The notes: generated by a model from the sequence alone, not told the origin. DNA of 37,008 nt from an uncultured Candidatus Saccharibacteria bacterium (GCA_964602725.1 CAZRRZ010000003.1:1-37008); one strand, 5' to 3'; shown: positions 1,577-30,150, numbered from the stretch's first letter. Made by a program: numbers and translations.

Positions 1577-2958
1577 TTGCGTCTCCGTTTTGCAATCACC
1601 TTAGCCACAAAATCAGCGGCCCCTTTTATGGGATCTTTCCCCATAGCCACATCTCTTGGAATGACAATTTCGCCTTCGCTAAGCATAGCTGGCACTTTAT
1701 CATTCGCATACGAATTACCGGATTTCACGGCTTTCTGATGAGGAGCTTTTGCTTTTACATGGCCGCCAGAAGATGCTAGGCCGCCGTCAGCCATTTTTTT
1801 CTCTTTTTCGCCATGCAGTTTTTTGCCTACGGCTTTTCCGAAAGAAGCAAACCCTTGTTGAATTGGATTTTGTTGTTGGCTTGACTCGCCCATTTGCTTT
1901 CCGGCGCCACTTAAAAATTTTCCAAATGAAGACATAGGAGCGCTAGAATCGGCGGGAGCTTGTGCAGGAGCGGCACCCGACATGACCGCACCGCCTACAT
2001 CATAGTGTTGAACCTGACCGCCCTTTGCCATTCCGATAGCTGCTCCAGCGCCTTGCATAACTCCGCCAATAAGGCCTTGTTTGCCTTGCATACCTTGTTG
2101 AAGGAGTGCGGTGTTTCCGCTGTTCACGTTTCCTTGAGCAGCTACGTTTGCGTTGTTTTGTGAAGCGAGAGCGCTTTGCATTTGTCCGGCGTTGGTTAAA
2201 TTGGCATTGGTGTTTGCTTGGGTTTGTGCAATTTGTTGCCCAGCCATCTGGTTAGCCATGCCCTGTTGCATTCCAGCTTGTGTTGTTCCCAAGTTTCCAA
2301 AAGCTTGTTGAGTGTTTGCAAGTCCAGATAAAGCGTTGACTTGTTGATTGGCTTGCATGGTTGCACCCTGGCCAACGGCTTGCTGTTGAGTAGCAGCACC
2401 TTGTTGCGCGGCTTGCCTTGCAAGAAGACCTGTATTAGCACCAGCGCCACGTTGTCCGGCCATCAAAGCAGCTTGGTTAGCAACGTTTGCTCCTGTTTGT
2501 TGATTGAGCATTGCTTGAGCAGGATTTGGGCCTTTGCCTTGAGCGATGTTTTGATACATTCCGGCGGTGCCTTGCAAACCTTGAATCGCAGCGTTTTGCG
2601 TGCCAACACCATTTGCGGCTTGGAGTTGACCCGCCAAAGCCGATTGTTGGCCCAGTCCGTTTTGTCCTTGAAGTGCGGCTAGTAAAGCTTGCTGACTTTG
2701 AAGCGAATTATTAACGCCACCTTGAGCTTGTTGCATTTGCTCGGGCGTAACGGCTTGTTGAATGGTAGCCATTTGTGGCTTATCAATTCCAGCACCCATC
2801 GCACCAGAGAATTCATTGCCCATTTTTCCGGCAATACCGTTCAAGCCATCAGCATTTAGCCCAGACCTTTTTAGAGATTCATCATATACAATATTGCTAC
2901 CACCAGTTGCCACCGTCGCCGCATGGCTTCTAGCACCGCCGCTTGTTGCACTACCCAT
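1573..2958 (-). CDS. Gln/Ala/Gly/Asn-rich low-complexity virion (internal/ejection?) protein, 461 aa
   Basis: ATG at 2958 is preceded by AAGGAG. The long low-complexity Q/A/G/N core is not interrupted by stops. The C-terminus carries MAKGGQV, MADGG and GGHV motifs, PAMLSEGEIVIPRDV and a basic tail (AKVIAKRRRK). The gene is coupled on both sides to neighbouring genes. Confidence 0.7.
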   Translation of the reverse strand: MGSATSGGARSHAATVATGGSNIVYDESLKRSGLNADGLNGIAGKMGNEFSGAMGAGIDKPQMATIQQAVTPEQMQQAQGGVNNSLQSQQALLAALQGQNGLGQQSALAGQLQAANGVGTQNAAIQGLQGTAGMYQNIAQGKGPNPAQAMLNQQTGANVANQAALMAGQRGAGANTGLLARQAAQQGAATQQQAVGQGATMQANQQVNALSGLANTQQAFGNLGTTQAGMQQGMANQMAGQQIAQTQANTNANLTNAGQMQSALASQNNANVAAQGNVNSGNTALLQQGMQGKQGLIGGVMQGAGAAIGMAKGGQVQHYDVGGAVMSGAAPAQAPADSSAPMSSFGKFLSGAGKQMGESSQQQNPIQQGFASFGKAVGKKLHGEKEKKMADGGLASSGGHVKAKAPHQKAVKSGNSYANDKVPAMLSEGEIVIPRDVAMGKDPIKGAADFVAKVIAKRRRK

Positions 2959-2960
2959 AT

Positions 2961-3299
2961 TTAAATCTCCTTTTTAAATATTATAAAATCATTTGAACAA
3001 CTGCTCACAGTCATTCCGTATGCAAGCAAAACCTTCATGCTTGTTGTGCTTCCTTTCATCGAAGGAACCACCGAGCCAATTAATTCAGTGCAACCCTTTT
3101 CCTTGGCTTCCTTTACAATAGCGTCCGCCATGTTAGCCGCTTCACCATTTTTTCTTAGCTCTGGAATAATGAAGATATCAATAATATATACCGACTTTCC
3201 GTTGTTTACATAACGATAGGTTGCAAACCCAAAAGCGTTTTCGATGACACAATCGTCTGTTCTTTCCATAAGATACTTTTTATAAAGGCTCGCCATCAT
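2961..3299 (-). CDS. Small GNAT-family N-acetyltransferase-like protein (112 aa)
   Basis: The track ORF 2961..3362 was trimmed to the ATGATG at 3299, one nt after the TAA (3301-3303) of the upstream gene. YIIDIFIIPELRKNGEAANMADAIVKEAKEKGCTELI fits the GNAT motif A pattern (beta4 - R/Q-x-x-G-x-A/G - helix). Confidence 0.6.
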   Translation of the reverse strand: MMASLYKKYLMERTDDCVIENAFGFATYRYVNNGKSVYIIDIFIIPELRKNGEAANMADAIVKEAKEKGCTELIGSVVPSMKGSTTSMKVLLAYGMTVSSCSNDFIIFKKEI

Positions 3300-3300
3300 T

Positions 3301-6300
3301 TTACCCCACACTCTCACTTGCCGGTTGTGGCCTGAAACCCTTTTTAAAGCCCATGACCACATTGAGCCCGGAAATCGTTAGCCCTGCACCAGCAACTACA
3401 CCAAAAGATGGGTCAAAAATTTCTTGAATCTCTATCGCAAAAGCCATACATCTTTGACGCTCCAAAAATACACGCCACAACTCTAAATTTGTTCCGCCCC
3501 CGTAAGGATTTCCTTGGCCAAATGGCGTTTGTGATGTTCCAGATCCAAACGGAGTAGAATAATTGGTTGGTGATATGATTATACTTTGTGATGGGTTTTT
3601 ATCATAATCGTAGCTAAGCAATACTTGAAGCTTATGCGGAGAAATATACTCACCAAGCAGGTAGAAAAAGTAAGCTCTTTGGTATCCCTGCAAATCGCCA
3701 AGGCGAAGCGGGCCAGTTTTGCAACAAATAAGAACAGGATTCGAACCATCTAAATATGTGTCCACATTTTGTTGGAAAACATCCCCATATTGATTGATAA
3801 ACGTATGCATTTTTTGAAATATACAAGAGCTTATACAAGGCACACCAACAAACGTACCCCACTGACCATAAAAATAGTCATACATCAAAGTAATTCCGGT
3901 ATCTAACGTGAACAAAACCATGTTGGTTTCTGGAACGTTGACCGCACTTTGAACTAATGCTCCCAAGGTAAAATCTTCAACAGGGGCGCCGATGTAAACT
4001 GTGCTCAAATCCCTTCCAAGCAACCAAATACCTTTATCGCTTTGAAACATTAAACCAGTGGGAGTTAACACAATCGATTTTTGATTTGTGCATCCTACTG
4101 TTGCGGTAACAAATGTTGCTTGGCTGTATTGGTTGTTCGCGCCCGTATTATCTGGACCATTCCCGTTGATATATAAAATTGCGTTTTCTTTAAAAGTAAT
4201 GAGCTTATCGTCCATGGACGCGCCCGCCGTAATCGGCCCAGTAGCTCCTTGCGTCGATGTGGTTGGCGGAACAAAAATTGTAAACAAGTCTGACATTTCA
4301 ACCGGAGTAGCTGGAATGCACTGTTTGCTATACCACCATGTATTGGGATCTTCGGCGTTAACTAACCAAAGGCGTGAATCAAACAATGTCAAAATATTAG
4401 AAGCTGGCGCATTTACATCTTCGATAACCCCGCCGGTTGTGTAAATGATGTTATTTCCCAGTATGGTTGCGTCCGAGTTTGTATCTAAGTAGGTTATTTC
4501 GTCGATAGTCGTATCATTTAGGATCGGAGACGTTATGCTTGTGGTTTGGTAATAAATTTGTTGCCCAACTGACCATCTATAAATCACAAGCTTTACAGCG
4601 TTCGCAACCTTCATGGTTAAACGTAAAGTTGCAATATTTAATGTGACGCTGCCCGTTGTTCCGGATCCGGTTGTGGTCACTGGTATAGGAATGGAAGGCG
4701 CAGAGCGAAAAGCATTACCTTGGTTGTCAGTCCATTCATAAACAAACTGGTAATAGTAAGCATTTATATTTGTGGCCGTGTCGGGTTGCGCTGCCATGCT
4801 TCCGCCAGTAGTTGACCACGTTGCGGTATTGGCCGGCGTGTCTTGATCGGTGTCCGGCCACAAAAAGAAATTGTGTTCTACTGGCAAATAACCGTCATAC
4901 ATCCACAAAAAACCACCCGTTAAGTGCAAATTGTTTGCGATTTCGGATGTGTTTAAGTTTTGAGTGCCAATTTCAAATTTTGACAAGTTCAAGCCAGTTT
5001 GCGAATAAATTCCATCAACCTGAGTGCCCGATGGAACATCAGTATTTTTGTTTACAGCCTGAACTAGAAATTTAAACCGATAAGGAATGTAGGCGACATT
5101 ATCAAATACCGAAACACCAGGGATTCCCAGCGTGGAATATCCGCCGCCGTTGCTATAAGCTAATTTCGAAGCTATAACCGGACTATCTTCAGTGCTATCG
5201 CTTCCATTGATCAAAAAATAGGTTGGCTGGTAGTCGCTTTGATAAGCAGACAAGAAATATATCTTTTCGTTTATGATAAAAGCTTTTGAGCTTAATCCAA
5301 CGCTACGCAACACAATATATGGAGACGATACGCTTGGGCCCGATAACGTAACATCTACTGATGAAATGTAATTTGTAGGGATAGCCGCATTAAATGTATA
5401 AGCGTTTTCCACTTCCGCAAACACTTTGCAAACGCCATTTTGGGCCGCTGATGCAAGATTGAGCAGAGTAACCGCTGTGCTTATGGCTTGCGGACTCATC
5501 AGAGTGTTCAGATTTTTATCAACCGCCAAAGTATACGCGTCATTTGACACGTCATCGTAATAGCTCACATAAATCACTGGGCTTGCTGCGTTTGTGTTAT
5601 CGGCGGTAACGCTCACGATAGTTGCAATTTCTCCAACAAACGTAGCCGGAGATGCCAAAAAAAGCGTTTTACTTAAGTAAGTCACTTTCATGGCTTGACC
5701 ACCGGAGGTTGTGTTGTAAGCAATGTAAAGATTCACATCGTTTACAAAACCATCCCAAGAAAGTGTTGTGGCTGGCGCGTATCCGGAAGCTATATCCGTA
5801 TTTGTGCTTATGGATGTTGGCGTGTAGGCGCTGATTGCAACATATTGCAAATGCGGAGAGCCTAAAATTGTATTTGTAAAAACAATGATGAAATTATTGC
5901 CAAGAACAAAAACACGCATCCCACCCGATACCGTTCCGGTAGTCACAGGAATTACAGAAGGTGCGACAATGTTTTGGCCGGTTACCGAATCGGCAATGGC
6001 GTATTTGTTTACAGTATTTGTTCCATCTGATTCCAGATAAACAGTGCACACAAGGCCGTTCGGTGCCACCGCACTATCAACCGCTGTTTGATTTAAGTTG
6101 TTTCTAATCAAAGGCAATACGGAAAGACTTAGAGGTTGAATGGTTCCTTTTTGCACATAACTCGCATTAGCGGGGTTGTATGCGGCAATATTTTGACCGA
6201 TCGCAGTCAAATCACCATTGAAAGTGGTTAAGTGTGTGTAAGTGGTATCCGGGAGTGAAGATAATTTAGGATATCCATAACGTTTTTGTAACAAACCGCC

Positions 6301-9907: not shown

Positions 9908-11215
9908 TTAAGCGCTCAAAGCAACTTGCATGTTGTAGCCAGGTGCCGAGTTGATCAGATTGCCGTAGTAAGCAATACGGATCTCAAGAGCATCAGCGTT
10001 TCCAACGCGCAAGCCTTCCAAACCTTCCATACCGTAGGTAAGGATGTGAGGAGCTTTTCCGAGGGTACGAAGTTTCCACGTATCCATCGTCAAGCACCAT
10101 GCGGTTTGAGCTTGGCAGCTACGATCAGCAAGAACTGGGATCTTACCGTAAGCAGAATGGAAGTGGATTGCTTCGAAAGCAACTTCAACTTCATCGTGCT
10201 CAAGTTGCACGTATTGAACTTTCGCGCCAAGTTCATTGATCAGCGTCGAGTAGCTGACAAAGTCAAGGACGATAAGGTCAAACGATGCACCTTCGCGGTT
10301 ACCGAATGCCAAAGCATTGGTGATACCTTCGGAGATCGATTGGCTAGAAGCGTTGTAACGAAGACCGCCCAAACGGGTAGGATCTGCGGAACGGTTAACG
10401 CCCCAGAAGTTATCAGTAGAAGGAGGATCTACAGCTGGAACCCAAGCTGCGAGTCCGGACATTCCAAGCATACCCGCGATCGTGCTAGATCCGCCGATAC
10501 CGATGTCACCAAGCACTTGAAGGAAAGTACCAGCAACCCATGAAGTTTGTGGAGCGCCTTGAACAACAACACCAGTAATTGCGCCAGTTCCACGATTCAC
10601 CGAAGTGATTTGGATAGCGTCAATTGTTCCAGGAGTGTTTTGCAAAGCAGCGCCGCCATCCGTAGCAGAGCCTTGGATAGTCATGCCAACTTCGAATTGA
10701 ACCACATTTTGTGGGTTCGAAAGTGTAAAGCTGAGGTTAGGAGCAGAATAGACAGGTGCGGTTGCAGAGATTGCGCCGCGGGTTGCTGTTCCACCGTAAA
10801 ACAATTCGAAAGCCATGTTGTTGGAGATGTTGCGGAAACCGTTATCAAGAGTACGGCTAGCTTCATCAACAAATGCACCAGCATTCGACTTGGTTTGTTC
10901 CATCAAAAGGTTTGTGATGGTGACAAGTTGGTAATCTTGAATAGCGTAGACGAAGTACGAAACAACGTCAGAAGCTGTTTGCTGATTCTGGGCGTTAGCA
11001 AATGTATGCGAACGTCCTTGTGGGTTGCCGTATTCCAAAGGCACTGGAATGTATTTACCAGCAAATCCGTCTGGGCTTTCATTCTTAGGAACAAGAGCCA
11101 AAAACGGGTTTTTGGAATACACGATATTTTTCATGTAGTCTTTGTCATCTGTATATAATTCTTTTAATGCGGCTAGCTGGTTAGAGCTATTGGCATATAC
11201 TGGAGCGATTGCCAT
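9908..11215 (-). CDS. Major capsid protein, 435 aa
   Basis: The gene immediately follows the scaffold gene, has an AAGGA RBS and a size typical of HK97-fold coat proteins, and is followed by a strong terminator. The two long plus-strand track ORFs here are antisense shadows. Confidence 0.7.
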   Translation of the reverse strand: MAIAPVYANSSNQLAALKELYTDDKDYMKNIVYSKNPFLALVPKNESPDGFAGKYIPVPLEYGNPQGRSHTFANAQNQQTASDVVSYFVYAIQDYQLVTITNLLMEQTKSNAGAFVDEASRTLDNGFRNISNNMAFELFYGGTATRGAISATAPVYSAPNLSFTLSNPQNVVQFEVGMTIQGSATDGGAALQNTPGTIDAIQITSVNRGTGAITGVVVQGAPQTSWVAGTFLQVLGDIGIGGSSTIAGMLGMSGLAAWVPAVDPPSTDNFWGVNRSADPTRLGGLRYNASSQSISEGITNALAFGNREGASFDLIVLDFVSYSTLINELGAKVQYVQLEHDEVEVAFEAIHFHSAYGKIPVLADRSCQAQTAWCLTMDTWKLRTLGKAPHILTYGMEGLEGLRVGNADALEIRIAYYGNLINSAPGYNMQVALSA

Positions 11216-11224
11216 ATAAATCCT

Positions 11225-12106
11225 TTATTTTTTGAGTGTCCCGTAAAACGCGGCTAATGCACGCTGCTTCGCCGTCATCGGTACGGAAGCTGTATCTTTG
11301 TTTGTTAAAGTTCTCATTCCTTGCTGGCGTTGCTGCGCTTCAGGTGCAGGTTGCGAAGGAGCAAACAAACTCTGCATCTTTTTTAGACCTGCTAGCTTTT
11401 GATTTCTTGCAAAGAGTTCATCCTCTACAAGTTGACAGGCTTCGGAGACATCCAAGACTTCTTTGCTTTCACGGTAAGTCATTTCAATCAACCTTATTAC
11501 ATCTGGAACACTTCCGGTTGCTCTCACAAGCTCATAAGTGTCACCCTGATTTACAAGCTCATTAGCTTCTTGCCTCATTTCATTGAGGACTTGTTGCTCG
11601 GCTCGCGTATCGCGCTCTGTAAACTTCTTTTCGACGCCTTCTTTAAGGGCTTCGATTTCTGCTTTCAAAGCATTTACTTCAGAGTTGCCTTGGTTCGCTA
11701 AGATCGCTTCCGTCAATTGATCATATGTAACGCCATTTTCTAGCAACACACTCAGAGGTTCAGACTTCAATCGGGCTATTTCTACCGCGTCACTTCCTTG
11801 TAACTTGGCTTCAATCGCCTTCTCTTTTTCCCGTAACTCCCTCTCCTTCACTTGGAGGGCACGCCGTTGTTTTGCAAGGGCGGCAAACTGAGGACTAATT
11901 GGCTGAGTAGCTTCTTCAGTCAAATTAGATTCGGTATCATTATTGTCCTCAATGAGTAGTTTTTCATCAGGAATAGGTTGAGGTATATCTAGTTGGCTTG
12001 TTGTGGCATTGGTTGTCATTTGAAGGGCACGAATTGCGTCAACTCTTGACCCGCCTTCTGCTCCTGCAACTGTGTTGGATGGTGCGCTAACCGGACTGAT
12101 TTTCAT
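11225..12106 (-). CDS. Scaffolding protein, 293 aa
   Basis: The gene lies between portal and capsid. The protein is highly charged and helical with coiled-coil content (KQRRALQVKERELREKEKAIEAKL; ALKAEIEALKEGVEKK). Confidence 0.65.
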   Translation of the reverse strand: MKISPVSAPSNTVAGAEGGSRVDAIRALQMTTNATTSQLDIPQPIPDEKLLIEDNNDTESNLTEEATQPISPQFAALAKQRRALQVKERELREKEKAIEAKLQGSDAVEIARLKSEPLSVLLENGVTYDQLTEAILANQGNSEVNALKAEIEALKEGVEKKFTERDTRAEQQVLNEMRQEANELVNQGDTYELVRATGSVPDVIRLIEMTYRESKEVLDVSEACQLVEDELFARNQKLAGLKKMQSLFAPSQPAPEAQQRQQGMRTLTNKDTASVPMTAKQRALAAFYGTLKK

Positions 12107-12151
12107 AACTATGAATCCTTTCGAAACCTTTACTTAGGTTTAAGTTTAAAA

Positions 12152-14089
12152 CTATGCCGCTACAGGGGCATTAGTATTGGGGATAAGAGGAGATGTTGCG
12201 TTCGGCATTGGATTAGCCGTTGGCGTTGGTCCACCGGGTGCACCAGGTCCCATTGGAGGGACTACTGGTTGCGATCCTTGTATTAACGTTTGAACCTGAG
12301 AGAAAAACTTACGGAGCATGTCTGCTTTTTCTTCCTCAAGGTTAGCCGCAAGGTAGAGGTTGATGTATTGAACCACAAGAGTAGTTGCGAGTTGCAAATC
12401 AAGGAACGGATCCGGCATGGTGTAATCACCGTCTTCCACGATTTTATCCAAGATTTGGAATATGCGTTCTTCGGAAGCGTTATCAAGCTTCTCATTTTCT
12501 TCAAGGTCAGGAGCTTTCATCAGTCTTCGGCCTTCTTTGACCGTTAACATTCCAGCTTGAACCATTTCGGTGACGGTTTGAATTCTACCGGCTGGGGTTC
12601 TAGGCAAAGAAGACTCAGTAAAGCATTTGATGACAAATGGATTTTTCAAAAAGCCCATCTGTGGAAGATTGATTTCTTTTGTTCCATCCTTGTTTGGATA
12701 GACCGTTTGATACGAGCCAGTATCTTTTGCGATGTCCATGGCGGTATCGGTAATGAGATAAGCAAGTTCAATAGCTACGTTTTCATGTTTTTTTGACAGA
12801 TAAGCAAATCTATCCGAGTTGATGTCATCATAGCTTCGGATGGCTTCGCCGGAATTTAAACCAGCGGGCTTTTGTGCGGTTGCTTGCATATTGGACACGC
12901 CACATTGACGATATCCATATTCAATAAGCTTATCGCGCTCAGCATAAAGCTCGGGAGCATTACAAGGAGCAACCTCATAGCTAGGTTTTGTGCCGGAGTA
13001 GGTTACGATAACGCCAATTTCATTATTATTGTGCGCTTTGACTACCTTGCTGCCTTGTTCAATGAACACGCGAGGCACACCCACCAAAGAAATGGCTTTA
13101 GTGATGGTGTACATGATTCGATTGATAGAAAGCTGCGTACCAAATAGCTGAGTAGCAAGCCCTTGGCCCCAGAATCCTAAGAATGGGTCTGAGTAATGCA
13201 TGAATACGAAAGGAAATTTGGTTTTATGGTAGGGCTCGTCAAAAATAATGCCGCCCATGGTTGCAATTGTGTGTCTTCCGGGAGTATATCCGGGCGCTTC
13301 TGGATCCGGACCGCTTGCAAGCTTCCATCCTTCAACAACCAACACTTGATCGGCTGTTGTGCGTCCTGAATCTGACGCATTGTCAGGATAAGATTGAGGA
13401 GTAAGAGCTATTTCGGGAGCAGCTTTTGGGTTATTGGCAAGAAGCTTGTCCCTGTCTACAAGTTTCATCTGGATAAGTTGTTGAGGATCTCCATTGAGAG
13501 AATCATTGTCATCGACATACAAATCCGTTGTCATGACTCTATCAATGCAAACCTTGTCGTTATCACCGCGGTATACTTTTAAAGCACCGCACCCCATAAC
13601 AATTGCATCTCTTAAGATTTTGGCGATCTTTTCGTAGGCATCTGTTTGGTAAAACTCTCCGAGGATAAAACGGTTGAGTTCTTGCGCAAGATGACGCTGC
13701 TTATAATCGGCACCATCAGTAAGAAATTTGGGCGCCGGTTCATTTTGAGAGAGACGTGAGACCAATGTATCAGTAGCTGACTGTATAAGATTAAAAGTTG
13801 GACGATCGTCAGGAAGAGTTTTCGTGCGGTCCATTTTGGAAACGTTGGACCCTGCATATGAATATACGGACAACCCACAATAGAGACGGATATCCACGGC
13901 CAACTGACGCATCCGGTAAGTCTGATGAGTTTTAAGGTAAGCAAGGTTTCCGCACAGTTCGGCGGCGAGTTGTCTGTCATCTTCAGCCTTCCACCATTCA
14001 GCCATGAGTGAGGCACCATTTGTACCATCACTTGCCTGTGTTTTAAATTTAATCTTTTCTGGAAGCTTTTTGGCCTTGGTTATTTTCAC
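12152..14089 (-). CDS. Portal protein, 645 aa
   Basis: This large acidic ORF lies between terminase and scaffold. The GTG start at 14089 overlaps the upstream TGA (GTGA coupling). The C-terminus is Pro/Gly-rich. Confidence 0.7.
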   Translation of the reverse strand: MKITKAKKLPEKIKFKTQASDGTNGASLMAEWWKAEDDRQLAAELCGNLAYLKTHQTYRMRQLAVDIRLYCGLSVYSYAGSNVSKMDRTKTLPDDRPTFNLIQSATDTLVSRLSQNEPAPKFLTDGADYKQRHLAQELNRFILGEFYQTDAYEKIAKILRDAIVMGCGALKVYRGDNDKVCIDRVMTTDLYVDDNDSLNGDPQQLIQMKLVDRDKLLANNPKAAPEIALTPQSYPDNASDSGRTTADQVLVVEGWKLASGPDPEAPGYTPGRHTIATMGGIIFDEPYHKTKFPFVFMHYSDPFLGFWGQGLATQLFGTQLSINRIMYTITKAISLVGVPRVFIEQGSKVVKAHNNNEIGVIVTYSGTKPSYEVAPCNAPELYAERDKLIEYGYRQCGVSNMQATAQKPAGLNSGEAIRSYDDINSDRFAYLSKKHENVAIELAYLITDTAMDIAKDTGSYQTVYPNKDGTKEINLPQMGFLKNPFVIKCFTESSLPRTPAGRIQTVTEMVQAGMLTVKEGRRLMKAPDLEENEKLDNASEERIFQILDKIVEDGDYTMPDPFLDLQLATTLVVQYINLYLAANLEEEKADMLRKFFSQVQTLIQGSQPVVPPMGPGAPGGPTPTANPMPNATSPLIPNTNAPVAA

Positions 14090-17346: not shown

Positions 17347-17353
17347 AAATAAG

Positions 17354-17427
17354 CTGGAGGAGTTGGGATCGAACCAACCTATTCGGAATTAACAGTTCCG
17401 CGCAGTCACCCTGATTGCTATCCCCCA
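17354..17427 (-). tRNA. tRNA-Asn (anticodon GUU)
   Basis: Hand fold of the minus strand: acceptor UGGGGGA/UCCUCCA, D arm GCAA-UCAGGGUGA-CUGC, anticodon stem CGGAA/UUCCG with loop CUGUUAA, variable AAUAG, T arm GUUGG-UUCGAUC-CCAAC, discriminator G. U1-A72 and G73 match what I recall for E. coli tRNA-Asn. No CCA is encoded. Confidence 0.85.
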
Positions 17428-19723: not shown

Positions 19724-20146
19724 TCATGCGAATGGGTTGAATTTCAGTTTCTTATAACGCGGTACCTTCAGCCATATCTCTGTAGCTGTTTTTGTAATAT
19801 GAGAAAAGGTTGTTGTACCTTCTGGGACTAACATGGAACCAATCCCTTGTTTGCGGTGGTCCCTATGCACATGAATATAGTCTAAAACGTCTTCTCTGGA
19901 AACCGAAAAGCCTAGAACTACGTCCCTATCATCGGTCAATACAGCCAACCGAATAACAGAATCAGGCTTATTCATAAGGTTTTCTATGAATAGGTGGTAA
20001 TGCTTGAAGTATTCGTCTGAGTTAATCTTTTCAAAATCGGGATTTCCGAAGCGAAAACTTCTAAGCCATTTAGAAAATACTAAGGACTTGTATTGGGGTG
20101 GCAAATGCTTTGCGGGATATTTGTGGATGGAAACCGTATCGCTCAT
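19724..20146 (-). CDS. GNAT-like acetyltransferase-fold protein, 140 aa
   Basis: VVLGFSVSREDVLDYIHVHRDHRKQGIGSML fits GNAT motif A (R-x-x-G-x-G). ATGA coupling occurs at 20143-20146. Confidence 0.5.
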   Translation of the reverse strand: MSDTVSIHKYPAKHLPPQYKSLVFSKWLRSFRFGNPDFEKINSDEYFKHYHLFIENLMNKPDSVIRLAVLTDDRDVVLGFSVSREDVLDYIHVHRDHRKQGIGSMLVPEGTTTFSHITKTATEIWLKVPRYKKLKFNPFA

Positions 20147-26379: not shown

Positions 26380-26636
26380 CTCAAGAAGACAGAGAAGAAT
26401 TATTACTTCAAATTGAAAAGCTTCGTGGACGGTTTGATATTATGGTTCCGGTGGCTATTCTTCAAAGAGGGCTTCACAGACTTTTCTCTGAGATTGACGC
26501 ACTGGATGAACATACTGACCAACTCGATACGGCTTGCTACGCCCTTGATGAAAAGTTGTCAGAAGTAAAGGCCGCGTATACAGAGCTTCAAAAAGAGTGT
26601 CAAACATTTAAGGATAGACTCTATCCAGATTTATAG
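26376..26636 (+). CDS. Hypothetical helical protein, 86 aa
   Basis: ATGA coupling links it to the upstream gene. Its stop codon overlaps the 3' end of the antisense tRNA. Confidence 0.5.
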   Translation: MTQEDREELLLQIEKLRGRFDIMVPVAILQRGLHRLFSEIDALDEHTDQLDTACYALDEKLSEVKAAYTELQKECQTFKDRLYPDL

Positions 26637-26707
26637 TGGCGGATGGATTTGAACCACCGACTTTCCGCTCATGAAACGGACGCTCTGCCCGGCTGAGCTA
26701 CGCCACC
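26634..26707 (-). tRNA. tRNA with CAU anticodon (elongator Met or Ile2-type; not initiator)
   Basis: Minus-strand fold: GGUGGCG-UA-GCUC-AGCCGGGCA-GAGC-G-UCCGU-UUCAUGA-GCGGA-AAGUC-GGUGG-UUCAAAU-CCAUC-CGCCACU-A. The 1-72 pair is G-U. The anticodon stem has no GGG/CCC run, and no CCA is encoded. Confidence 0.85.
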
Positions 26708-26952
26708 GTTGCAACTAGAGCCCCGCGCGACTAAGGCCCAGCTTTTCTCGTCGCAACCCTTCTAGATGGTAGCTGACCTACGCCTGTGCATGTCTCCAGA
26801 AATACTGTTGGTGCGCTGTCACTATGCCCGTCGACATATAGATCGCCTACGTTCACTCCAACAGCCCTCCGTAGGCTAGTTATTTCAGCGTTGGCCCACC
26901 TCGAACGGTATTACTACCTCGGTGAGCCTTCCCATGCCGTCTAGTTGCAACC
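26708..26952 (-). ncRNA. Unclassified structured RNA element (245 nt) abutting tRNA(CAU) +1
   Basis: The track shows no ORF on either strand. My hand count gives 134/245 G+C. A 12-bp closing helix pairs 26940-26951 with 26708-26719. The hairpin at 26893-26928 has a GUAA tetraloop and a tandem G.A/A.G beside a 4-nt bulge. Several further helices exist, and G-U pairs plus GNRA loops occur only in the minus-strand transcript. Confidence 0.5.
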
Positions 26953-27014
26953 TTATTTATAATCATTTAAGCTTGATCACACCAGATCCAAATTGATTTT
27001 CAAGGGGTTCATGT

Positions 27015-27218
27015 ATGTATTTTCGCATCCACAGAGACATCGATGGTCATGCTTTTAGAATTCGTAAAGTTGTTCTTGAGCTCTTTAGAGACGATGGAAC
27101 TTTAGTAGATCGACGACGTATGTTCGCCGGACTATTCTTCGCAAAACGCCTTGCAAGAAAACAAGCGCGAATGGCAAAAATTGGCAAAATCATGGTAGCG
27201 TGTAGCTATAAATTATGA
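27015..27218 (+). CDS. Small basic protein, 67 aa
   Basis: An AAGGGG RBS precedes the start. The protein is Arg/Lys-rich and is the first gene of the accessory operon. Confidence 0.5.
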   Translation: MYFRIHRDIDGHAFRIRKVVLELFRDDGTLVDRRRMFAGLFFAKRLARKQARMAKIGKIMVACSYKL

Positions 27219-27331
27219 TTCCATCTTCGGAATATTTAGTACTCATTTACATGATTATAAGCGCCTATTTATTCCCTGTTTTTGCTATTGCTACATTTTT
27301 ACTGTTAAAGTATGGAGATAGGAAAGATTAA
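27215..27331 (+). CDS. 38-aa single-TM mini-protein (not in ORF track)
   Basis: ATGA coupling occurs at 27215-27218 and TAATG coupling at 27329-27333. The translation is MIPSSEYLVLIYMIISAYLFPVFAIATFLLLKYGDRKD. Confidence 0.5.
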   Translation: MIPSSEYLVLIYMIISAYLFPVFAIATFLLLKYGDRKD

Positions 27332-28275
27332 TGCGTCACGAAAGTCATGACAGGGATAAGTTTCACGTCGTTACGATGATTTCTAACCCAGTAAGGTATG
27401 AATCAAGATATGAGCTTTATAAAGTCTTTGCAGCAAAGATGGCTAGTGCCGGTGTCAACCTCACAACCGTGGAATTGCAACTTGGGGATAGACCTTTTGC
27501 TATTACGGATAGAGATTGTGCGCGCCATATTCAGCTCAGAGGATGGGACGAATTATGGCACAAAGAGAACTGTCTCAACATTGCGATTCAAAGCTTGCCT
27601 TCAGATTGGGAGACCGTGGCTTGGATCGACGCTGACGTGGAATTTATCCGTCCCGATTGGGTGGAAGAAACAATCAATCAACTCCAAGTCTATCAAGTTG
27701 TCCAAATGTTCGAAACCGCCATTGACCTTGGTCCATCCGGAAAAACCATTGCAACCCACAAATCTTTCATGAGTCAATATCTGGAGAATAAATCAATGCA
27801 TCCAGAAACAAGCTATCAAGAATGGCATCCGGGTTTTGCTTGGGCCGCAAGGAGAGAGGCTATTGATGGAATGGGGCAACTTTACGAGAGAGCAATCCTT
27901 GGAGCAGGAGACCGCCATATGGCTCTGGCGTTTGTTGGAAAGGCAGAGTGCTCCTTTGTCCATGACATGCAATCAGAGTATGCTCAAGATATCCTTAGGT
28001 TCCAAGATCGATGTCACCATACGATCCGCAAGGATGTCGGAGTTGTGCCAGGCACTATTGTCCACAATTGGCACGGCAAAAAGCGGGATAGACGTTATTT
28101 CGACCGATGGCAAATCCTTATCAATAACGATTACAAACCGCACCGAGATATTAAAAAAGATTCATTTGGTGTATTCAATTTTGTAGACGATCATTCGCCA
28201 CGCTTCATCAGGCTTCGCGACGAGATACGTCATTATTTCCGACAAAGAAATGAAGACAGCGTGGATCTCGAGTGA
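27331..28275 (+). CDS. Glycosyltransferase (GT-A-like, DxD = WIDADVEF), 314 aa
   Basis: FHVVTMISNPVRY, a DAD motif after a beta-strand, and HNWHGKKRDRRYFDRWQIL fit a pattern I recall from phage and virus glycosyltransferases. Confidence 0.6.
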   Translation: MRHESHDRDKFHVVTMISNPVRYESRYELYKVFAAKMASAGVNLTTVELQLGDRPFAITDRDCARHIQLRGWDELWHKENCLNIAIQSLPSDWETVAWIDADVEFIRPDWVEETINQLQVYQVVQMFETAIDLGPSGKTIATHKSFMSQYLENKSMHPETSYQEWHPGFAWAARREAIDGMGQLYERAILGAGDRHMALAFVGKAECSFVHDMQSEYAQDILRFQDRCHHTIRKDVGVVPGTIVHNWHGKKRDRRYFDRWQILINNDYKPHRDIKKDSFGVFNFVDDHSPRFIRLRDEIRHYFRQRNEDSVDLE

Positions 28276-28394
28276 TGTTTGCACTTCTTCTATTATTTGG
28301 TGTGGTTACGATTTTACCATCAATTATTTTGATGTTTATCACCTGGTTTTTTGATTATCTCCATAACGAATTTTTTGACAAAATTAGATTTTAA
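28275..28394 (+). CDS. 39-aa single-TM mini-protein (not in ORF track)
   Basis: It overlaps the glycosyltransferase stop (TGATG). The translation is MFALLLLFGVVTILPSIILMFITWFFDYLHNEFFDKIRF. Confidence 0.5.
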   Translation: MFALLLLFGVVTILPSIILMFITWFFDYLHNEFFDKIRF

Positions 28395-28447
28395 AATCGA
28401 TCGCTGTTAAAATAGCAACTGTTCACTAAGTTTTACAAGGAGGTAAA

Positions 28448-29530
28448 ATGCTTAAGTCATTAGTGTTGGTTTTTTGCATCGGGTCATCTATTGCCCTGGC
28501 GTCTACATCAAAATTCCCCATCATAAAAGGAGAAAACGGAAAAAGATACCATACGGGTCTGCTTCATAAGCCACAAGCTTACAAAGGACTCGGAGAAACA
28601 CACGTCAAACTTGCAGATTGTGAAAATCTTCCAGAAGAATTTGATTTGCGAAAACTCGGAACTGTTACAGCTATCAAAGATCAAGGATCTTGTGGGTCAT
28701 GTTGGAGCTTTTCTAAAACAGCTTCTCTTGAATCCGCGATTTTGGCAAACGGCGGCAAGTCCATGGACCTGTCAGAAAAAGAATTACTCACATGCGATAG
28801 AAATAACTATGGATGTGACGGCGGTTTGCTCAACCAAAAAGAATACCAAGTAGTTCACGGTCAAGGACTTGAGTCTGATTTCCCATATTCGCCTTCAGAC
28901 GGACCATGCAAAAGCATTCCTGTTGCCGTTAAAGCAACTGAGTTTGTAATGGTTGGATCTTCTAACAGATCTCCAAACCTCAAAGAAGTGAAATGCGCGC
29001 TGTATAAATCTCACACCGTGCCATGGATAACAGTCGCCGCAGAAGGAAACTGGGGTCAAGCGCCTAGTACAGAAGACACTATGTTTAGGTCTTGCGGACG
29101 CGGTCAAACCAACCACGCCATCGGTATCGTGGGATGGAAAAAAATCAACGGCAAGGAAGGTCTGATCATCAGAAATTCTTGGGGCATGGGTTGGGGAGCA
29201 AAAGGCTACGCTGTTATGCCGCTCGGTTGCGATAACCTCGGTGAAGAAGTTGCATACATCATGACGGACGCGATGCCATGTAAACCACCCGTTTTTCAAC
29301 TTCCAGCGCATATAGAAATCTCTCCGAATGTAGAAGTTATGCTTGGAGTTAAAGAGCAATCTGGCGTGGAATATACCTGGTATTCAGCTGATAAAGAGAT
29401 TGGCAAAGGGTCTATGATCTATGTCATTCCATCTGAAGACACAATCTATAAACTCGTAGGAAAAACCGCTTGCGGTACTGTTGAAAGTTCAGTAAAAATT
29501 AGCGTGATTAAGGCCAGCCAAGCGCTTTAA
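28448..29530 (+). CDS. Secreted papain-family (C1) cysteine protease with C-terminal beta-domain, 360 aa
   Basis: An AAGGAGG RBS precedes the start. The signal peptide is MLKSLVLVFCIGSSIALA. The mature N-terminus reads LPEEFDLRKLGTVTAIKDQGSCGSCWSFS (Gln/Cys), followed by NHAIGIVGW (His) and IIRNSWGMGWGAKGY (Asn/Trp). About 90 extra C-terminal residues follow. Confidence 0.9.
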   Translation: MLKSLVLVFCIGSSIALASTSKFPIIKGENGKRYHTGLLHKPQAYKGLGETHVKLADCENLPEEFDLRKLGTVTAIKDQGSCGSCWSFSKTASLESAILANGGKSMDLSEKELLTCDRNNYGCDGGLLNQKEYQVVHGQGLESDFPYSPSDGPCKSIPVAVKATEFVMVGSSNRSPNLKEVKCALYKSHTVPWITVAAEGNWGQAPSTEDTMFRSCGRGQTNHAIGIVGWKKINGKEGLIIRNSWGMGWGAKGYAVMPLGCDNLGEEVAYIMTDAMPCKPPVFQLPAHIEISPNVEVMLGVKEQSGVEYTWYSADKEIGKGSMIYVIPSEDTIYKLVGKTACGTVESSVKISVIKASQAL

Positions 29531-29540
29531 TTAATGAAGA

Positions 29541-29591
29541 AGGCGGTCGCCCTGGACAACTCATTGTGAGTAGCGCCGCCTTTTTTATTTT
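29541..29591 (+). terminator. Rho-independent terminator (possibly bidirectional)
   Basis: AGGCGG(U)CGC pairs with GCGCCGCCU and is followed by UUUUUUAUUUU. It lies between convergent operons, and a second 9-bp hairpin sits at 29606-29657. Confidence 0.7.
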
Positions 29592-29663: not shown

Positions 29664-29849
29664 TTATGGTGTTGGGACGCCTAAAGCCTCTGCAATAACA
29701 GAAACCATATAATCGTCAACTTTGTTGCTGGTATCTTTTGCCAATTCAGCAAGATAAGCCACTAAAGCTTTCTTTCCTTCATCAACAACGTTTCCAGATA
29801 ACAATTGCTTCAATACAAAAATCAATACTTGCTCAAGAACTTTATCCAT
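29664..29849 (-). CDS. Small amphipathic protein, 61 aa
   Basis: The track ORF was trimmed to the ATG at 29849, which overlaps the upstream stop by 8 nt. It is the last gene of the minus-strand operon. Confidence 0.45.
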   Translation of the reverse strand: MDKVLEQVLIFVLKQLLSGNVVDEGKKALVAYLAELAKDTSNKVDDYMVSVIAEALGVPTP

Positions 29850-30150
29850 AAATTTCTCCCGCGATTTTTGCCTCGATTCTTTTAATGCGACACACTGCAT
29901 TATCAATATCGATGGCGGTTTTGTGGAAATCAGTTTCAAGCTTAACATGCTTTTCAGCCAACTCGGTAATGCCATCAGTAAATTTTAACACTTCCGAAAG
30001 CTGACCTTTGATGTAAGAAATATCTGAGGCAAATTTTAGATAATTAGCAATTAACGCTGATAAAACACCAAAAACAAATGTCATCAAGTTTAAAATCCAC
30101 GGGTATGTATCAAAAATATCAAGCACGTTAATCCTGATGAGCGGATTCAA
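29842..30150 (-). CDS. N-terminally membrane-anchored coiled-coil protein, 102 aa (i-spanin- or holin-like)
   Basis: The TM segment ILNLMTFVFGVLSALIANYL is followed by a helical, charged domain. Confidence 0.45.
   Translation of the reverse strand: MNPLIRINVLDIFDTYPWILNLMTFVFGVLSALIANYLKFASDISYIKGQLSEVLKFTDGITELAEKHVKLETDFHKTAIDIDNAVCRIKRIEAKIAGEIYG

Follow-up and report, generated by a model that had tools for sequence, protein, structure and literature searches.

Phage accessory genes that change the surface of the host cell are drivers of superinfection exclusion, host range and virulence, with most known examples drawn from a few model phages, and there are established precedents for phage-encoded transferases that act on the glycans of the host or on virions. 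Transferases of the GtrB type bring about O-antigen conversion, and some other transferases are thought to glycosylate the virions of mycobacteriophages. Here we analyze a cluster of five plus-strand genes at 27015-29530 of a complete contig of 37,008 bp (GCA_964602725.1, CAZRRZ010000003.1:1-37008; hereafter the window, meaning that whole stretch), encoding a basic protein of 67 amino acids (aa; p67), two transmembrane mini-proteins (tm38 and tm40), a GT-A glycosyltransferase and an exported C1A cysteine protease. On balance, we favor the view that these are accessory genes that move separately and form a mosaic, located in a variable hot-spot on the roughly 37-kb genome of an uncultured phage, rather than the single envelope-remodeling module proposed in an initial annotation of this DNA.

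Several described systems resemble parts of the cluster. V-CATH, the cathepsin of baculoviruses, promotes host liquefaction and progeny dissemination, and, in common with the window protease, it belongs to C1A, has a double-stranded DNA virus as its source and is directed out of the cytoplasm (PMC9965964). In Bacteroides fragilis, where staphostatin-like inhibitor genes are co-transcribed with C10 protease genes, one such gene, bfp3, lies on a prophage-like element, and its product too is a secreted clan-CA cysteine protease borne on a phage-like element (PMC2873492); the window enzyme is however of the C1A rather than the C10 family, and no staphostatin-like inhibitor gene adjoins it. Phage virion glycosylation is also mentioned in the literature (PMC11256854). 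The Gtr seroconversion cassette comprises a GtrA-like multi-pass flippase, a GtrB transferase with transmembrane helices at its C-terminus and a polytopic GtrC, whereas the open reading frames (ORFs) that flank the window transferase encode single-pass products of 38-40 aa without a family match. In its layout the locus recalls moron genes for exported proteins, such as bor and lom of phage lambda, which are likewise non-essential, are gained and lost individually and sit at the end of an operon by a terminator.

The evidence for a mosaic comes from the neighborhoods of relatives. Their loci were fetched by means of the same gene families, and many of the contigs are short; because the very genes under study were used for fetching, the sampling of loci is conditional on them. 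At the family level, a protease gene was found within 8 kb of the transferase in none of 80 viral loci, and a transferase gene within 10 kb of the protease in none of 80. Synteny of all five genes, as would be expected of the module in the initial annotation, was not conserved, and largely independent occurrence was found instead. Among the closer relatives, for which the identities given are those of their transferase to its window counterpart, the transferase is followed in L084/85 (83%) by an unrelated 253-aa exported protein, termed family X, in the protease's place and with no protease present, in L081 (82%) by a 36-aa transmembrane ORF and a protease split over three frames, in L249 (69%) by an opposite-strand C92 peptidase gene and then the protease, and in L167 (63%) by an HNH gene and then the protease; in L082 (74%) and L083 (71%) only the transferase was found. 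The HNH endonuclease ORF of L167 lies at 2396-2812, and the three-way split of the L081 frame (11109-12150) represents either decay or an assembly error. Conversely, L250 has a protease and no GT-A gene within 10 kb, and in L166 the protease follows two small late-operon genes, dn102 and dn103, on the same strand, with the transferase apparently elsewhere on the same contig, to judge only from two contig records of equal length (36,175 bp). The presence and absence of the protease are interleaved along the 63-83% scale of transferase identity, and the p67 and tm38 genes are absent from these closer relatives (L081-L085, L166, L167, L249 and L250). The self-contained five-gene unit of the initial annotation is thus only partly borne out: it stands with respect to its anatomy, coupling and terminator, described below, but its families are gained and lost separately in relatives.

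The products themselves had been described as a basic 67-aa protein, two transmembrane mini-proteins, a glycosyltransferase and a secreted cysteine protease, and each of these descriptions held. The protease (360 aa; 28448-29530) matches Pfam family PF00112, Peptidase_C1, over residues 61-260 (E = 2.7e-40; 139.2 bits against a cut-off of 20.7), and 156 PDB sequences match it at E<=1e-10, including caricain and cathepsin K at E of about 1e-31 in alignments that start at residue 56-61. It belongs to the same papain family, MEROPS C1A, as caricain and cathepsins K and L and has the same Gln/Cys/His/Asn catalytic set: Q79, C85, H223, N243 and W245 are invariant in an alignment of 33 sequences, the QGxCGSCW and NSWG motifs are intact, Q79 is the oxyanion-hole residue, and the domain opens with LPEEFDLRK, which lines up with the first residues of the mature plant enzymes (LPENVDWRK in caricain). 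The N-terminus carries a Sec signal peptide at approximately residues 1-19 (MLKSLVLVFCIGSSIALA, with a predicted cut before STS), replaced in several homologs by a lipobox and Pro/Thr linkers. A conserved 40-residue extension (YHTGL) lies between the signal peptide and the catalytic domain, which begins at about residue 61, and with only these 40 or so residues preceding that domain the Pfam scan found no I29 prodomain, a feature that is typical of C1A zymogens but is not needed for membership of family C1. In the predicted structure, whose mean predicted local distance difference test score (pLDDT) is 88.6, the C-terminal domain at about 288-353 is all-beta and weakly resembles phage Ig-like domains, and the viral structural matches include cathepsins. 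The signal peptide, the extension, the Ig-like C-terminal domain and the missing I29 prodomain set the enzyme apart from C1A zymogens and from V-CATH, as does, in the latter case, the lack of a chitinase partner. Viral contigs scanned with a single sequence returned nothing, while an alignment-based scan succeeded; deposited phage genomes gave 3 weak matches in 50,697 records. The protease is widespread in one uncultured phage group and almost absent from sequenced phage isolates, and we found no published study of phage C1 peptidases.

The closest full-length cellular orthologs of the protease (52-55% identity) are chromosomal genes of Bdellovibrionales and Pseudobdellovibrionaceae metagenome-assembled genomes (MAGs), where they sit in a conserved housekeeping context; in a neighbor-joining tree they nest among the phage copies. 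The GC content of the MAG contigs is 43-45%, compared with 42.8% for the window, their tetranucleotide usage ranks 20-41 of 66 and is uninformative for the host, and no other window gene matches them. Bdellovibrionales may tentatively be named as the host. At L247 9049-9996, in a Bdellovibrionales MAG, a GtrB/ArnC-like GT2 gene, whose product bears transmembrane helices at its C-terminus, comes after the protease ortholog. Kinship between this gene and the phage transferase was considered and rejected (BLASTP E 0.28; hhalign probability 0.1%), and since the GT2 gene is unrelated and missing from a second MAG, the likeness of this pair to that in the window looks coincidental.

The 314-aa protein (27331-28275) is, on the basis of its predicted structure, a GT2-like GT-A glycosyltransferase of a large unannotated viral family. 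Sequence libraries alone were silent, with no match in Pfam, PHROGs, NCBIfam, PADLOC or PDB sequences, and the assignment came only from structure prediction and family-wide scanning. When the AlphaFold model (pLDDT 89.5; predicted template modeling score 0.90) was compared with the PDB by Foldseek, the top 48 of the 50 listed matches were nucleotide-sugar glycosyltransferases (probability 1.0, E down to 6.8e-7) and rank 49 was ADP-glucose pyrophosphorylase, a related nucleotidyltransferase; template modeling (TM) scores to solved structures were only 0.3-0.47, and the best viral structural matches, at 0.87, were uncharacterized proteins, one from Yasminevirus. The fold is accompanied by a DxD motif within AWIDADV, preceded by strand E95-99, in which W98, D100 and D102 are invariant across 32 sequences; H245/H248 and R259/W260 are further invariant positions of the alignment. 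PF00535 is matched by 16 of 32 relatives (best 4.5e-7), PF05637 and PF13506 by one each, and a PDB search with the family profile gives ceramide glucosyltransferase (E = 0.027). The GT-A fold and the DxD after a beta-strand are shared with GT2-type enzymes such as GtrB, but the C-terminal transmembrane helices of GtrB and ArnC are missing, partners like GtrA or GtrC are lacking and GtrB is only a distant structural match. The window protein is soluble, without a hydrophobic segment (maximum 19-residue Kyte-Doolittle score, hereafter KD19, 0.89).

Homologs of the transferase number 3179, with more than 587 in IMG/VR; their sources are giant-virus bins and phages across the whole size range. No recurrent neighbor was found across 88 loci, leaving no neighborhood clue to the acceptor, and a capsid gene stands beside the transferase in only 8 of them. 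There is one homolog from an isolate, the Xanthomonas jumbo phage XaC1, in which every neighbor is annotated as hypothetical, and we found no published study of the family. Two loci carry other genes for sugar metabolism or transfer: in L083 a sugar-nucleotide biosynthesis cluster (1803-5862; epimerase/dehydratase, CMP-sugar-type cytidylyltransferase, aminotransferase and acetyltransferase) lies 4-8 kb upstream of the transferase, and in L250 a GT-B glycosyltransferase gene (12223-13278) lies within the tail operon, which hints that glycosylation matters in this phage group.

The remaining three products are small. p67 (27015-27218) contains 17 lysine and arginine against 6 aspartate and glutamate residues (pI 11.2) and has no signal peptide or transmembrane segment; alignments define the family motif RDCDxRxRLRKVVxEL...DRRRMF. 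A word-indexed search had returned only p67 itself, and its apparent orphan status was overturned by exhaustive phmmer searching, which found 32 relatives of 63-83 aa at E<=1e-3 (best 1.8e-14) plus two longer ones (311 and 1,639 aa). For scanning loci, a broad p67 alignment proved too divergent; once narrowed, it gave results in metagenomes and none in viral contigs. The protein resembles no known family of inhibitors. Each mini-protein has one strongly hydrophobic stretch, that of tm38 (38 aa; 27215-27331) spanning L8-L31 (maximum KD19 2.41) and that of tm40 (40 aa; 28272-28394) reaching 2.80. A tm38 homolog was not found in the relatives examined, and we take the gene to be coding because it fits exactly between its neighbors and similar transmembrane partners follow p67 homologs in L259 and L260. 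For tm40, the 36-aa transmembrane ORF between transferase and protease in L081 is a positional analog. A small transmembrane ORF flanks the transferase downstream in 9 of 84 loci and upstream in 1 of 84, roughly one tenth with either.

The arrangement of the genes was also as the initial annotation had read it: five co-directional ORFs, the first four linked by overlapping stop and start codons, a protease gene behind a short spacer and a strong ribosome-binding site, and a strong terminator at the end. The overlaps, read directly from the sequence, are ATGA at 27215, TAATG at 27331 and GTGATG at 28272-28277; tm40 starts with GTG at 28272, and the in-frame ATG at 28275, which would give 39 aa, forms a classic TGATG overlap with the transferase stop. 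The p67 gene has its own AAGGGG site 7 nucleotides (nt) before its ATG, and the protease gene follows tm40 after 53 nt, with a Shine-Dalgarno sequence AAGGAGG at 28437-28443, 4 nt before the ATG. At 29533-29591, where the plus-strand cluster and the minus-strand late operon converge, a GC-rich hairpin flanked by an A-run and a U-run forms an intrinsic terminator. The hairpin (29533-29589) has a folding energy of -25.9 kcal/mol (z = -4.74; none of 200 shuffles as stable) and is followed by UUUUUUAUUUU, giving the stem and U-run of a Rho-independent terminator; owing to its long loop, it was not picked up by a simple terminator scan. Since an A-run lies 5' of the stem, it can also stop the converging minus-strand late operon, and it is probably bidirectional. 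On the upstream side, a lone TATAAT hexamer at 26958-26963, 52 nt before the first gene, is a candidate -10 element, although the promoter scan reported none there and no acceptable -35 element accompanies it. From these signals, we infer that the cluster would be transcribed as one unit starting past an opposite-strand tRNA-Met gene, with the first four genes translated through stop/start coupling, the protease translated by re-initiation at its own strong site, and transcription stopping at the shared hairpin.

The cluster stands at the end of the plus-strand arm of the genome (23897-29530), which holds the recombination genes and converges with the late operon on the one terminator. The other, minus-strand late arm crosses the contig end, and its terminal part consists of tail-fiber genes followed by dn102 and dn103 (29664-30150), small minus-strand genes at the end of the late operon that are conserved beside the hot-spot in relatives. 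The protease gene is found at the end of the plus-strand arm, facing the late operon, in the window, L081, L249 and L250. Portal, large terminase, major tail protein and RusA are all encoded in the window; no lysogeny genes were recognized in it, and it has no relative, isolates included, among the 50,697 deposited phage records.

In the model that we favor, this end of the plus-strand arm would be a cargo hot-spot rich in genes for exported and membrane proteins, facing the tail-fiber and small membrane-protein genes at the end of the late operon, into which each gene family would move, or from which it would be lost or replaced, by itself. The two enzymes would work in different compartments. 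To judge from the modeled fold, the transferase would work in the cytoplasm with a nucleotide sugar and a metal bound by its DxD motif, whereas the protease, with its signal sequence, would leave through Sec, be cut by signal peptidase I and act outside the cytoplasm without a prodomain. What the genes encode and their mosaic distribution are shown by the comparisons, while a role at the envelope is something that we infer: as a best guess, the exported and membrane cargo may act on the envelope of the infected cell or its surroundings, with receptor destruction, exclusion of other phages or progeny escape as possible effects. By the same guess, the principal effector would be the protease, with the transferase acting independently as an enzyme common to many viruses.

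A number of observations weigh against a pure mosaic. Profile searches of the fetched loci, together with tblastn, show that p67, transferase, protease and family X recur as adjacent pairs, with order and orientation shuffled. p67 adjoins the protease in 4 of 15 loci (window, L251, L257 and L263, in varied orientation), with one further weak case, and the transferase in 3 of 15 (window, L252 and L265); X adjoins the protease in 5 loci (L088, L089, L095, L096 and L121), in the same direction and in many cases with codons that overlap, and the transferase in 2 (L265 and L084/85, whose near-identical members were counted as one). The order of transferase and then protease is also kept in four genomes despite insertions. 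Furthermore, L265, a different phage backbone with no other window gene within 8 kb, carries the transferase, a p67-like domain and X together. Pairwise adjacency of the four families is thus commoner than we would expect for unrelated cargo, and the recurring pairs, L265 included, hint at real functional links that a mosaic reading underplays.

The membrane is a recurrent theme of these pairs. Downstream of the transferase in L265, X is fused in frame to the p67-like domain, and the C-terminal helix of p67 runs into a membrane anchor; in L259 and L260, p67 is followed by an overlapping 80-aa protein with two transmembrane segments. Coupling or fusion of p67 to a partner that is exported or lies in the membrane is thus seen repeatedly, and the exported and membrane types found here or in the neighborhoods of relatives include the protease, X, the transmembrane mini-proteins and the two-segment 80-aa protein. 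Family X, absent from the window, encoded right beside C1 protease genes in several distant phages and without a Pfam or PADLOC match, comprises proteins of approximately 230-280 aa with a signal peptide or lipobox, a hydrophobic C-terminal part and the motifs GDHxP...THLxDI..NFxIPVVF and YW..C...G.G...C.P; its members lie at L082 1540-2235, L084 4509-5270, L088 10951-11793, L089 6737-7579, L095 415-1200, L096 712-1515, L121 5073-5786 and L265 8001-8936. These pairs leave room for partial links within a mosaic, joining p67 to the transferase and to a membrane partner, and the protease to X.

The strongest form of such a link is the integrated envelope-remodeling role, in which p67 and the mini-proteins would tether the transferase to the inner membrane face and the protease would trim the same surface structure; with a lipid-linked or envelope acceptor, the joint outcome would be receptor masking or phage exclusion. 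We regard both the tethering and the joint outcome as unlikely. The translational coupling of the first four genes is what such a role would predict, as are the transferase neighbors of p67 in L252, L265 and the window, the overlapping membrane protein of L259/L260, the in-frame lipoprotein fusion of L265 and the order of transferase, transmembrane mini-protein and protease shared with L081. Nevertheless, about 89 of 92 transferase loci have no p67, only about 10% have a flanking small transmembrane ORF, and close relatives do without the protease; no GtrA-, GtrB- or flippase-like features were seen and PADLOC gave no match. In addition, the transferase family is found in phages with many different hosts as well as in giant viruses that infect eukaryotes, a spread that an envelope acceptor specific to one host fits poorly. 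Of the module in the initial annotation, what survives is the identity of the genes and, through the recurrent pairs, the idea of a functional theme; its functional unity is weakened by a transferase and a protease that never occur together at the family level, and by the dispensability of the latter.

A looser variant would treat p67, the transferase, the protease, X and the mini-proteins as a combinatorial host-envelope toolkit of an uncultured group of phages possibly infecting predatory Bdellovibrionota. Different phages would assemble different subsets, with p67 anchoring its partners at the inner membrane face and the protease, with or without X, acting outside. In our estimation the toolkit itself and this division of labor are each rather improbable; if true, the toolkit would represent a kind of accessory system not so far described in phages.

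It is similarly doubtful that the protease is an exit factor, which would act with the small membrane proteins of the late operon to degrade envelope or matrix proteins at lysis, the transferase being unrelated cargo. Its gene abuts dn102/dn103 in the window, L081, L251 and L257, and follows them on the same strand in L166, in the only endolysin-like position that we found; no endolysin was recognized by Pfam among 40 window ORFs tested, and V-CATH offers a precedent for a cathepsin that liquefies the host and disseminates progeny (PMC9965964). Against this, L082 and L084 retain dn102/dn103 with no protease nearby, L249 has a Peptidase_M15_3 gene elsewhere, and dn102 and dn103 match no holin or spanin family, the only matches of dn103 being PHROG families without known function. 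The arrangement also departs from a lysis cassette of holin, endolysin and spanin, given that the protease is a C1 peptidase and has no muralytic domain and that its gene lies on the strand of the recombination arm, opposite to and outside the late operon. We know of no C1 peptidase that cleaves peptidoglycan. A role as the sole lysis enzyme, considered for want of a recognizable endolysin, was downgraded in view of the close relatives that lack the protease and of the M15 peptidase gene of L249. Lytic-type genes in relatives comprise this Peptidase_M15_3 gene and a Phage_lysozyme gene in L265. As to the small genes themselves, dn102 has a transmembrane segment at its N-terminus followed by a coiled coil, and dn103 most likely starts at M40 (29858), giving 64 aa (M40-P103) against about 60-61 aa in relatives, because stop codons occur upstream in those relatives. 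The same stop codons, falling in the putative N-terminal extension of dn103, rule out an embedded spanin-like pair.

Less probable again is that neither enzyme concerns the host envelope. The transferase would then modify the phage's own virion or another cytoplasmic acceptor, and the protease would be an auxiliary metabolic gene, exchanged with a Bdellovibrionota host lineage and boosting extracellular protein digestion during infection; we consider each half of this proposal quite improbable. The transferase is soluble, and the occurrence of its family in both phages and giant viruses makes a virus-encoded or universal acceptor plausible; the sugar-nucleotide genes of L083 and the GT-B gene in the L250 tail operon point the same way. 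However, just 8 of 88 loci place a capsid gene beside the transferase, and no glycosylation target was identified. The MAG orthologs of the protease, nested as they are among phage copies and on contigs of agreeing GC content, are consistent with exchange, but tetranucleotide usage does not favor those contigs and the protease is the only window gene to match them.

Lastly, a staphostatin-like role for p67, as a cytoplasmic inhibitor or chaperone guarding the cell from a prodomain-less protease before export, would suit the missing I29 prodomain, the adjacency of the two genes (in differing orientations) in the window, L251, L257 and L263, and the co-transcription of staphostatin-like genes with C10 protease genes in B. 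fragilis (PMC2873492), but is highly improbable given that p67 is missing from the 10 kb around the protease in most relatives that carry the latter (L081, L166, L167, L249 and L250), occurs without a protease in L252, L259 and L265, is very basic and unlike known inhibitor families, has a C-terminal helix which in L265 extends into a membrane anchor and, in contrast to the partners in staphopain/staphostatin, SpeB/Spi and Bfp/Bfi pairs, is not consistently co-inherited with the protease.

Other features of the window are of separate interest. Upstream of the cluster, as the initial annotation noted, lies a tRNA and structured-RNA locus: a tRNA-Met gene (CAT anticodon; 26634-26707, minus strand) and, directly 5' of it on the same strand, a GC-rich folded stretch at 26708-26955. 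This stretch has a GC content of 54% against 42.8% for the genome and is bounded by a perfect 12-bp inverted repeat, GTTGCAACTAGA / TCTAGTTGCAAC; an Rfam search returned the tRNA alone, the stretch was not seen in any fetched relative, and it folds with a z-score of only -1.95. Possibly the stretch is a stable RNA that is transcribed together with tRNA-Met. A second tRNA gene, tRNA-Asn (GTT; 17353-17427, minus strand), lies immediately upstream of the large terminase gene. Two GNAT acetyltransferase genes are also found on the long minus-strand arm, one at 2961-3362 among the structural genes, and the other at 19724-20146 among unannotated ORFs upstream of the terminase gene.

The cargo set of p67, GT-A transferase, C1A protease and X is not previously described, and PADLOC-DB returned no match for the five cluster proteins, dn102, dn103 or family X. 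The locus also carries a caution, in that tight gene coupling in one genome is not evidence of a functional system. It joins several uncharacterized families, among them a GT-A family of more than 3,000 proteins, an exported papain-like protease and two further unnamed families that recur beside them. If the link to Bdellovibrionales is confirmed, it would lead to tailed phages of predatory bacteria, which to our knowledge are barely known. Once the target of the protease or the acceptor of the transferase is known, it would give function to thousands of viral genes.

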